64,000 bases of DNA from a virus (taxonomy: Duplodnaviria; Caudoviricetes). The first letter of the stretch is position 1, and every line of letters begins with the position of its first letter. Of this stretch, positions 57,382 through 59,583 are shown piece after piece. The notes beneath the pieces were generated by a model. The model was not told the DNA's origin and made no database searches. It saw nothing but the letters and a program-made list of their open reading frames with translations. The translations under genes were made by a program, and so were the position numbers. Location: the IMG/VR virus record IMGVR_UViG_3300043786_001086, one strand, 5' to 3'.

Positions 57382-59583
57382 ATGAAAGTATCATTCAGTT
57401 ACGAAAATAAAGATTTTAAAAAACATTCTGACTTTGTTAATAAGTTCATAAAACTTTTGCAACGAGAATTTCCCTTAAAAAATGATTTAAGAATAATTTT
57501 TTTAAATCAAAAAAAAGGTGAAATGTCAACAGGTAGTAGAAGATCGGATAATGTTATTAAAGTCTTAGTTGGTGATCGAATGAATCGAGACATCATGAGA
57601 ACCTTAGCTCACGAATGGGTTCACGAACATCAAATGGATGTTTTAAAAAGAGAAAAAGGTCCGGACATTGGTGGTAAAAATGAAGATGAGGCGAATGCTT
57701 TTGCAGGAAGACTTATTAAAATTTTTGAAAAAGAAAATCCTGATTTTGAACCGAGAATGTATGAATATAAAAGTTTAGAAAATAAACTAACTCTAATTAG
57801 AGAAAACATACAACGAAACGAAAAATCTTTAATCAAAGAAAGTTTGATTGCTGAGATGAAAAAAATTGGAATTGATAAATTACCATACTCATACTCTTCA
57901 CTTCAAAAATTTATTGACTCTAAAACGATGGATGTTCATTATAACAAACACTATAAGGGTTATGTTGATAAATTAAATAAGGCACTTAAGAACGAAAGTG
58001 GTGATATGGAGTTAGAGGAGATTATCAAATCTATAAGTAAATTTGATAATACCGTTAGAAATAATGCCGGAGGTGCCTTTAATCATGCGTTGTTTTGGAA
58101 AATGTTATCACCTAAAAAACAAATCCCAAAAGGTGAAATATACGATCAAATAAAAAAAGATTTTGGTAACATTAAAAAAATGAAAGATGAGTTCAATCAA
58201 GCCGCCAAGGATCGTTTCGGTTCAGGATGGGCTTGGTTATATCTTTCTAAAGATGGTAAGTTAAAAATAATGTCCACCCCTAACCAAGATAACCCTTTAA
58301 TGAATGTTGTTAAAAAAGGGGGGTTTCCTATACTAGGTCTGGATGTTTGGGAACACGCTTATTATTTAAAGTATCAGAATAAACGTGATGAATATATAAA
58401 CAATTTTTGGGATGTTGTTAATTGGGAATTTGTGAATGATTTATACTTGAGTAAATTAGAAACATCTGAAAAAAAATCTTTGAACGAAAATACTAATAAA
58501 AACGAAACTATGGTTTCCAAATTGTGTAGGTCGGTAAAATCAAGGGGTAAAACAGATTCACCTTTTTGTGAATTAGAAAAAGTTATTGGGTCACTCAACA
58601 ACAAAATGATTGAGGATAGTATAAACGAAAGTTTAACTAAAATGAGAAAATTTTTTTCTAGAATATCTGTTGGTGTTTTTCCTACAATAATTAAATTGAG
58701 CCTTCCTGATGTTAATCAAATTGCAAACTTTTTAAAATTGGTTGCGGATTTCATTGAAGACGAAAGATTTGATAACGAATATACCAAAAAAGTGCTTAGA
58801 CAATTTAAGAATAAGAATGTTATTCCTAAAGATTTAGAAGCGATGTTAGATTATATAAAATTTAAAGAACATGAAAAACACGAATTAAGATTTACAGACA
58901 CACCTTACTTTACTAAAAAAGCAACAAAATTGGAACTTAACTATAATTGTGGTGATGACGCTAAAGACAAAATTATACAGACACTTCACAAAATTAGAGA
59001 TAAAAAAGAAACTTTGAATTTTAATTTTTTTAGAATTACAAAATGTTTGACAGATTCATTTAAAAATACAACTAAGAATTTAAAATCTGATATGGAAGTT
59101 GCTATGGATTTAAAAAAAGAAAATGGTGACGTTATGTTCCCTAAAGGATCATTTCTTGAGGCAAAAAACATGGATTACGCAATAGATAGTTATTTATCGG
59201 AATTTTTCTCAATTTTTAAACAAAGTAATTTAAAAAATGACAAACCATTAGTGATCGATATATATAATGAATTGATTGATAAAATATTTATTTGGTTACA
59301 AACAAATCAAAATGCAAAAAACTATCTTGATAGTGTTAGAAATAAAATTTCAGGTATGGTTTATTCGAACGATATAATTATACCAATAGAGTATATTGAA
59401 CTTTATTGGTCGAACAAAGGTCAAAGGGGGTGTGATGAAAAAAGACTATCAATACGTTTCAGGATCAAACCGGAATACAATAAAGTTGAGGCATATAAAT
59501 TTGTTGATAAAGACATTTTAGAATCTGTTGTTTTAGACATTCCCCAAGGAGAAAAAAAACTTATTACTTGCCCGACTACATAA
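57382..59583 (+). CDS. Fusion: ImmA/IrrE-like HExxH metallopeptidase + Fe/Mn superoxide dismutase (Mn-type signatures) + unknown C-terminal domain
   Basis: RTLAHEWVH...EDEANAFAGRL; SOD region LPYSY...HYNKHY...NNAGGAFNHALFW...FGSGWAWL...NQDNP...LDVWEHAYYLKYQN at about 57860-58445; then about 370 aa of unknown sequence, all in one frame. Confidence 0.85.
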   Translation: MKVSFSYENKDFKKHSDFVNKFIKLLQREFPLKNDLRIIFLNQKKGEMSTGSRRSDNVIKVLVGDRMNRDIMRTLAHEWVHEHQMDVLKREKGPDIGGKNEDEANAFAGRLIKIFEKENPDFEPRMYEYKSLENKLTLIRENIQRNEKSLIKESLIAEMKKIGIDKLPYSYSSLQKFIDSKTMDVHYNKHYKGYVDKLNKALKNESGDMELEEIIKSISKFDNTVRNNAGGAFNHALFWKMLSPKKQIPKGEIYDQIKKDFGNIKKMKDEFNQAAKDRFGSGWAWLYLSKDGKLKIMSTPNQDNPLMNVVKKGGFPILGLDVWEHAYYLKYQNKRDEYINNFWDVVNWEFVNDLYLSKLETSEKKSLNENTNKNETMVSKLCRSVKSRGKTDSPFCELEKVIGSLNNKMIEDSINESLTKMRKFFSRISVGVFPTIIKLSLPDVNQIANFLKLVADFIEDERFDNEYTKKVLRQFKNKNVIPKDLEAMLDYIKFKEHEKHELRFTDTPYFTKKATKLELNYNCGDDAKDKIIQTLHKIRDKKETLNFNFFRITKCLTDSFKNTTKNLKSDMEVAMDLKKENGDVMFPKGSFLEAKNMDYAIDSYLSEFFSIFKQSNLKNDKPLVIDIYNELIDKIFIWLQTNQNAKNYLDSVRNKISGMVYSNDIIIPIEYIELYWSNKGQRGCDEKRLSIRFRIKPEYNKVEAYKFVDKDILESVVLDIPQGEKKLITCPTT

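Follow-up and report, generated by a model that had tools for sequence, protein, structure and literature searches.

We analysed a 64,000-nucleotide stretch of a Caudoviricetes virus genome (IMG/VR record IMGVR_UViG_3300043786_001086; hereafter the window) and focused on one gene of its plus strand, at 57382..59583. As the first-pass annotation of the window had reported, the gene is a single frame of 733 amino acids (aa). It encodes a zincin-like metallopeptidase domain, a first linker, an Mn-type superoxide dismutase (SOD), a second linker and a C-terminal domain that we call type A. The gene is best read as a string of three independent modules: a small zinc metallopeptidase, an active-looking Mn-type SOD and an exchangeable restriction-endonuclease-like domain. 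Neither the whole protein nor its separate parts matched PHROGs. At the BLAST level, no cultured phage of the phage collection carried the fusion or a homolog of the neck gene beside it, and a literature search did not find a description of a zincin-SOD-nuclease fusion.

An assembly chimera was checked for and excluded. A protein similarity search recovered 1281 relatives of similar length, and the identical protein is present on 20 contigs, the longest of 298,910 bp. Both junctions are crossed by single contigs that span 57000-60000 with 0 differences in lake metagenome runs of 2016, 2020 and 2024. These runs possibly include the source sample and are weaker evidence than the count of independent relatives; no RNA run is listed among those with the stretch, and the two labelled 'RNA-Seq' are probably DNA and contain related strains only. 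The zero-difference recurrence of this 3-kb stretch suggests a very stable phage population, with the same reservation that some runs may be the source sample.

The SOD module occupies aa 164-353 (57871..58440, +). Both Pfam domains of Fe/Mn SODs lie above their gathering cut-offs: Sod_Fe_N (PF00081) at aa 164-243 (4.6e-21; 75.5 bits vs 27) and Sod_Fe_C (PF02777) at aa 249-353 (2.7e-41; 140.2 bits vs 20.9). The nearest solved relatives are MnSODs (6gsc, the best match at E 2e-67, 6gsb and 5a9g), and alignment to 6gsc placed all four metal ligands, His186, His235, Asp321 and His325. The Mn-type discriminators NNAGG (at 227) and NQDNP (at 301) are present. Judged by these signatures, the SOD is complete and Mn-type, as had been read from the sequence initially, and it looks active. 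His190 and Tyr194 occupy the positions of the second-sphere residues His30 and Tyr34 of Escherichia coli MnSOD.

The N-terminal domain (aa 1-127; 57382..57762, +) was modelled by AlphaFold2 (AF2) as a minimal zincin-like metallopeptidase fold (pLDDT 92.7, pTM 0.88), with a strand at 3-7, a helix at 12-29, strands at 36-41, 51-54 and 58-62, the HExxH helix at 68-86 and a further helix at 99-118. The zinc-binding, catalytic motif reads HEWVH (aa 77-81; 57610..57624, +). The probable third zinc ligand, Glu101 (57682..57684, +), sits on the second C-terminal helix within NEDEANAFAG (aa 100-109), which completes the motif pair of HExxH and a downstream Glu in E..A..FA that is typical of ImmA/IrrE. 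In 48 close relatives, H77, H81 and E101 are invariant and E78 is kept in at least 90%; in an alignment of 52 diverse family members, R66, D70, H77, E78, H81, E101 and G109 are all invariant. A profile from the 48 close homologs retrieved 1841 representative proteins (E <= 1e-3), mostly stand-alone and ~125-135 aa long. The zincin also occurs in much larger proteins, with an SOD and a Zeta-toxin/AAA_33 kinase in P0281 (1547 aa), with an AAA_33 kinase in P0217 (1707 aa) and with an RNase_T exonuclease in P0255. P0281 and P0217 come from other sources, and P0281 represents a second, independent association of SOD and zincin, in a different domain order.

The first-pass annotation had assigned this domain to the ImmA/IrrE (M78) peptidases. 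The motifs on which it relied are present and their zinc-site residues are conserved; membership of that family is not demonstrable. No Pfam family reached its threshold on the N-domain, and Peptidase_M78 (PF06114) gave no match at E <= 1 on the 733-aa protein itself. When the 52 family members were scanned singly, sub-threshold matches were spread over DUF6055 (17 members), DUF3920 (16), Peptidase_M78 (12; best E 0.0062), DUF6782 (11) and SprT-like (6). A profile of the domain found no relative among solved structures by sequence. Fold matches to AFDB clusters included SprT-like, DUF4157 and IrrE-N-like proteins (E 3e-6 to 1e-3, with 'IrrE N-terminal-like' at 7.6e-4), and the cores of Wss1/SprT, YbeY-like, M30 and M1 proteins appeared to fit better than PprI. 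Ten ORFs (open reading frames) scanned across 49179-63885 contained no helix-turn-helix (HTH) family that could act as a repressor partner, although a small ORF without matches may still encode one, and the scan of this region likewise showed no GAF-like sensor domain. The domain is probably an active minimal gluzincin, as predicted from its fold and residues, in a family of its own without a Pfam model.

The C-terminal domain of type A (aa 382-733; 58525..59580, +) was predicted to comprise a helical and then an alpha/beta subdomain (AF2 pLDDT 84, pTM 0.76). A (P)D...E-x-K pattern had been noted in this otherwise unassigned part. It is present as a candidate PD-(D/E)xK motif, D570 ... E593-A-K595 (59089..59166, +), and KSD570 ... 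FLE593-A-K595 is invariant in 39 diverse homologs, on or beside predicted strands. No known family was found. Foldseek searches of the PDB, AFDB clusters and the atlas with the C-domain model yielded no convincing match, with weak restriction-enzyme fold matches only; a feature search of the protein atlas returned only noise (M16, score 0.85), and a profile search against solved structures by sequence found no relative. Relatives of the fusion carry other C-domains (types B to D, described below), and Pfam gave only sub-threshold matches on types A-D. Type B has a weak PDDEXK_5 lead and a type-B variant a weak MjaI match (E 0.006). Type C resembles stand-alone viral proteins of 342 aa (score 0.96, TM 0.65) and the enzymes SmaI or HinP1I, which is a weak lead. 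We consider the C-domain a probable PD-(D/E)xK-type domain. Its six cysteines (382, 396, 523, 555, 684 and 730) are all invariant, in stand-alone copies as well, and are not arranged as CxxC; this would suit a protein with a phase outside the cytoplasm, a point of little weight.

The two linkers stood out for their short [LI]xE motifs. Linker 1 (aa 128-163; 57763..57870, +) contains IRE141, IKE153 and IAE158, and linker 2 (aa 354-381; 58441..58524, +) contains a basic run followed by LNE369, so that the LIRE/LIKE/LNE junctions of the first-pass annotation were found where it had placed them. The linkers make up 8.7% of the protein and hold four of its nine [LI]xE motifs (binomial P = 0.005). 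Of 76 relatives, 75 retain IRE141 and 70 retain IAE158, and the linker 2 motif is found in ~100/100 non-redundant relatives, whichever C-domain type they carry.

The modules are shuffled among relatives. The top 121 relatives share a constant zincin-SOD half (~80% identity) and end in one of three unrelated C-terminal types (A, B and C); a fourth, small type (D) was found in the complete sister genome G002. In P0492 (262 aa) and P0530 (234 aa), the SOD stands alone behind an N-terminal extension that is homologous to linker 1. P0425 (364 aa) combines it with the zincin only and stops within the basic run of linker 2, just before [LI]xE, and SODs with other tails are also found (P0485, 394 aa). 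Type A exists by itself in proteins of 371-386 aa and behind an N-terminal part with a membrane segment in proteins of 503-515 aa. The close relatives of types B and C in IMG/VR, which are as far as that search reaches, were all within fusions, with no stand-alone leader-headed copy. Some contigs of the same lakes run straight from the last part of the SOD domain into the neck gene (58439 -> 59618) or, in another join, through 217 other letters (58370 -> 59699), so strains without the C-terminal cassette co-occur with this one.

The site itself is constant. The downstream neighbour encodes a T4 gp13-like neck/head-completion protein (59618..60742, +; phrog_211, 3.9e-9, with PF26809 Phage_T4_gp13 on orthologs). 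It lies directly 3' of the SOD gene in every relative examined, in the order sheath ... SNF2, (small genes), SOD gene, gp13-like gene, a 105-115-aa gene and the family B DNA polymerase (PolB). Stand-alone SODs occupy the same site between SNF2 and gp13. This distribution marks the SOD as the fixed element of the locus, to which the zincin and the C-terminal cassettes were added later. The first-pass annotation had named two findings that would speak against a shared system, a chimeric assembly, or an inactive peptidase and SOD together with relatives in which the domains are separate and share no function; the fusion proved real, and the domains do occur separately. Their separate occurrence argues against an obligate joint mechanism of all three domains, yet it fits a string of modules that can be cut apart.

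The sequence ahead of the C-domain resembles the tail of a leader on other proteins. Stand-alone type-A proteins (N-termini MKLIISESQYKKLIES, MKIILTEEQFKSLRES, MKIIISESQFLKLKEN and MKIIITEYQYKKLNEL) and the unrelated type-D proteins of 148-149 aa that flank the SOD gene in G002 (N-terminus MKIIITESQYKLIKEN) have in common a start of ~15 aa, MK[IL]I[IL][ST]E.Q[YF]K.L.E[SN]. In the fusions, KK.[LI][KN]E[SN] precedes the C-domain and aligns with the tail of this leader, so linker 2 resembles the end of MKIIITESQYK.L.E. Linker 1 is also leader-like (consensus K-L-N-L-L-T-E-Q-I-L-L-.-E-K-..-I-K-E-N), and stand-alone SODs retain it as their N-terminal extension. In G002 (296 kb, IMGVR_UViG_3300044633_000899, L088-L103), at least 17 ORFs begin with the leader and continue into at least eight unrelated bodies. 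They include nine paralogs of the 148-aa family, five of them in tandem flanking the SOD gene, and further examples lie at 46998-47819(-), 50379-50831, 76559-77065, 107162-107560, 111503-111694, 127196-127819(-) and 278695-279381. The leader codons vary synonymously, which indicates that selection acts on the peptide. No strict leader motif was found inside the giant zincin-bearing proteins; P0278 alone has the leader, at its N-terminus. In the window itself, a 90-aa ORF at 53842..54114 (-) starts with the leader-like MKIIIKESQI and may encode a small leader-bearing cargo protein; it has no clear [LI]xE at the usual distance.

A candidate enzyme for cutting at these motifs is encoded by the sister genomes. 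Peptidase_S77, the T4 gp21 family, was detected in G001 and G002 at E ~1e-23 (81 and 79 bits vs a Pfam cut-off of 27). One leader-bearing ORF of G002 lies between the portal and prohead protease genes, and genes for an acidic 508-aa protein and then the major capsid protein follow. T4 has the same gene order, and its portal-protease slot holds core proteins. The first 60 residues of the G002 major capsid protein contain five [LI]xE motifs (LLE6, IKE23, LKE44, LYE51 and INE60) vs three in the remaining 549 (Fisher P = 3.5e-4), and this clustering fits [LI]xE as the predicted cleavage motif of the lineage.

We also observed a TATTTAT-type motif (ATATTTAT-type) that precedes many leader genes, as in G002, and several structural genes by 5-35 nt. 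In the window it is found at 56447, 59596, 54652(-), 9018(-) and 20542(-). Genes with this motif often start within ~5 nt of it and lack a Shine-Dalgarno sequence. The number of ATATTTAT 8-mers in the window is close to the estimate from base composition and permits no conclusion on promoter class or timing.

The phage is an uncultured T4-like freshwater myovirus of ~300 kb with no close cultured phage, and it looks like a jumbo phage. The exact stretch was found in lake-water runs, and sister contigs of 272-296 kb were rated 93-100% complete. The window encodes a ribonucleotide reductase (21583-24964), a DnaB-like helicase (24986-26368), a UvsX-like recombinase (28692-29696), a single-stranded DNA-binding protein (29988-30851), a baseplate hub (46832-47602), a tail tube (47682-48170), a tail sheath (49179-52514), an SNF2 helicase (54630-56447) and a family B DNA polymerase (61069-63885). 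The gene at 56472-57176 (+), which precedes the SOD and gp13-like genes, encodes a protein of 234 aa whose N-terminal half is coiled-coil-like and rich in Ser/Thr; its only family match is a short one to phrog_16348, and its place is roughly that of T4 fibritin (wac). Two genes of sister contigs may contain insertions. The SNF2 helicase ortholog at 2640-5546 of L002/L003 is 968 aa long vs 605 aa, and its weak to faint Hint and LAGLIDADG matches indicate that it probably contains an intein. The 1031-aa portal protein of L096 (10873-13968; 162873-165968 in G002) has HNH endonuclease matches at 229-412, before the portal domain, which would be explained by an intein or by the insertion of a homing endonuclease.

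We tentatively interpret the SOD gene product as a modular polyprotein that is cut at leader-derived [LI]xE linkers by a gp21-type prohead protease and carried in the capsid like the T4 internal proteins; we put this at slightly below an even chance. The fusion would be made and then incorporated into the prohead, its two linkers being derived from a capsid-targeting-type leader. There, the T4 gp21-type protease would cut after the Glu of [LI]xE in the linkers, around E141/E153/E158 and E369. The products, of ~16, 24 and 42 kDa, would remain inside the head and pass into the host together with the DNA. Early in infection, the SOD would remove superoxide there, and the third, variable module would act on nucleic acid or host defence. 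That the protein is packaged, cut and delivered, and what each product does, we infer from features that are seen directly, namely the domains and their catalytic residues, the module shuffling, the junction motifs, the shared leader and the protease gene of the sister genomes.

Of the two explanations offered by the first-pass annotation, a packaged polyprotein matured into an SOD and two effectors is the better supported, by indirect evidence: the [LI]xE linkers, the leader resembling a capsid-targeting sequence (CTS), the gp21-type protease of the sister genomes and a distant SOD homolog in the cultured jumbo phage PA5oct. This homolog, EST35_0261, is Fe/Mn-SOD-like, has the N-terminus MNDSIKKYISIAE and carries a GenBank note of ESI-MS/MS (electrospray ionization tandem mass spectrometry), the method by which 93 virion-linked gene products of PA5oct were identified (PMC7318152).

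Several observations weigh against packaging and cleavage. The fusion has no leader at its own N-terminus, where MKVSFSY... forms strand 3-7 of the zincin fold, and leader-like sequence is internal only. The [LI]xE motif is short and common, and its conservation in the linkers may reflect structure or recombination junctions. Specificity at the P3 position varies within the gp21 family, with A-x-E in SPN3US (PMC5694885). The gp21-type protease was seen in the sister genomes, which are what that search covered. The PA5oct protein is only ~30% identical, and the virion list of that phage includes 'virion-unrelated enzymes' (PMC7318152). Finally, the gene sits between the SNF2 helicase and DNA polymerase genes as well as beside the neck gene.

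One alternative is an uncleaved, multi-domain accessory protein in the cytoplasm. Its SOD would shield the infected cell from superoxide, for example the class Ia ribonucleotide reductase of the phage, and the zincin and C-domain would have been fused by accident in a hypervariable island, each acting alone. This explanation, which we regard as unlikely yet the most serious of the alternatives, agrees with the absence of an N-terminal leader and the separate domains of relatives. The locus varies among sister phages, and variants without the C-domain share the same lakes. Ribonucleotide reductase genes are present in the window, and stand-alone SODs are common in phages. It leaves unexplained why [LI]xE is retained in both linkers of nearly all relatives, why linker 2 matches the leader tail of unrelated proteins and why the SOD gene keeps its position just 5' of the neck gene. 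The flagging of the distant PA5oct homolog by virion mass spectrometry also speaks against it.

Cleavage could instead be the work of the zincin. In such a self-processing effector of the polyvalent type, the N-terminal zincin would cut the polyprotein in the capsid or after injection and free the SOD and the nuclease-like domain. Metallopeptidases (MPTases) with the same core topology have been proposed to act likewise in polyvalent proteins (PMC5512222). The catalytic residues of the zincin are invariant across its family (1841 proteins, 52 aligned), and the same zincin lies inside the giant multi-domain proteins P0281, P0217 and P0255. However, the linker motifs are equally conserved in relatives without a zincin, both SOD-alone forms and forms with SOD and C-domain (e.g., P0492 and P0485), and cleavage therefore cannot depend on the zincin in cis. 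The zincin is single-copy in each sister genome, against at least 17 leader-bearing ORFs in G002, and SOD is unmentioned in PMC5512222. We consider self-processing improbable.

We give still less credence to a decoration of the neck or collar, in which the protein would be displayed near the head-tail junction and its SOD would act outside the cell. The gp13-like neck gene directly downstream on the same strand in every relative examined, the coiled-coil-like 234-aa gene upstream and the six invariant cysteines, which would suit an extracellular protein, all point that way. Against it, no structural-protein family or fold match was found, and the C-terminal half is swapped or deleted, unlike a fixed structural attachment.

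The other explanation of the first-pass annotation, a redox sense-and-respond protein in which oxidative stress would lead an ImmA/IrrE-type protease to cleave a repressor and the SOD would sense or protect, has very little left in its favour: HExxH and E..AN.FA are like those of M78, with the weak M78 matches in 12 of 52 members and the 'IrrE N-terminal-like' cluster at E 7.6e-4, but no M78 match reaches threshold, other zincin cores appear to fit the fold better than PprI, neither an adjacent HTH repressor nor a GAF-like domain was seen in the ORFs scanned at 49179-63885, sister phages keep the SOD without the zincin, which is dispensable at the locus, and the phage looks like a lytic T4-like jumbo phage.

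The packaged, protease-processed polyprotein may be one case of a wider arrangement. T4-like jumbo phages of freshwater and marine habitats might load their capsids with a protease-released enzyme kit, in which a constant MnSOD is combined with an exchangeable, polymorphic nuclease-like cassette of at least four unrelated types at one locus; we hold this generalisation to be possible and on balance somewhat doubtful. Such a kit, if real, would correspond in phages to polymorphic effector systems, with a T4-type capsid-targeting leader reused as a connector between modules, and the phage would inject an antioxidant enzyme, a zincin and a variable nuclease. Capsid targeting with release by a protease is known from a handful of T4 proteins. 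Here, it apparently organises a large, shuffled repertoire that includes whole polyproteins, with abundant lake and ocean phages as the apparent carriers. The leader together with [LI]xE would then provide a sequence rule for predicting the injected proteins of uncultured T4-like jumbo phages. The arrangement would also point to superoxide as a factor early in infection and would make the variable C-terminal cassettes likely participants in host-specific defence and in counter-defence. Neither the small zincin family (1841 representatives, without a Pfam model) nor the type-A C-domain (without a fold match) has been characterised.

The individual modules can be compared with known enzymes. The SOD has both Pfam domains, the four ligands and the Mn-type Gly/Gln pattern in common with bacterial MnSOD of the SodA type. 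Unlike the bacterial enzyme, it has a further domain on either side and follows a conserved helical extension of ~36 aa, which the stand-alone phage versions also have. In size and fold the zincin is similar to ImmA/IrrE (Peptidase_M78) and SprT/Wss1, and like them it has HExxH and a Glu on the following helix. It differs from them in falling below every Pfam threshold, in lacking a repressor partner, the GAF domain of IrrE and the DNA-binding tail of SprT/Wss1, and in its conserved R66, D70 and G109.

As a whole, the protein recalls the polyvalent proteins of phages and conjugative elements (Iyer et al. 2017), which are multi-domain injected proteins built around zincin MPTases of 12 clades, with the MPTase as hub domain; the core zincin topology comprises an N-terminal helix, a three-stranded sheet, the HExxH helix and a Glu helix (PMC5512222). 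Here too, a phage multi-domain protein contains a zincin of MPTase topology, which acts as a hub in having diverse, shuffled partners, and relatives of this zincin lie in 1500-1900-aa proteins beside Zeta-toxin-like kinases. By contrast, MuF, ART, SNF2 and methylase domains are all missing from the same polypeptide, SOD is absent from the description of polyvalent proteins ('superoxide' has 0 occurrences in PMC5512222), and the linkers suggest processing by a prohead protease and not by the MPTase. PA5oct EST35_0261 is likewise an SOD-like phage protein with a 13-aa N-terminal leader that ends in IAE. It differs from the protein described here in its ~30% identity, its single 182-aa domain and its ClpX, ClpS and FtsH-like gene neighbours.

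A close parallel is with the internal proteins of T4. Few T4 proteins bear a leader, and the at least 17 leader-bearing ORFs of G002 are far more than in T4. IPI-III are loaded into the prohead by the CTS MKTYQEFIAE, which gp21 removes, and any protein fused to this leader is retained (PMC8442874). The gp21 relatives of phiKZ, 201phi2-1 and SPN3US cut after the Glu of a short motif, often at several sites, and some propeptides of their substrates are ~125 residues long (PMC5694885, PMC9026906). Unlike the T4 internal proteins, the predicted cargo combines three modules in one polyprotein, has its leader-derived linkers inside the chain and no leader at its N-terminus, and contains an SOD and a zincin. 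In common with IPI, IPII, IPIII and Alt, unrelated cargo is headed by a short leader with an MK start and an I/L-x-E end (MKTYQEFIAE vs MKIIITESQYK.L.E). Also as in T4, a gp21-family protease is encoded (in the sister genomes), cargo genes are hypervariable between related phages, and the head, neck and tail genes are T4-like.

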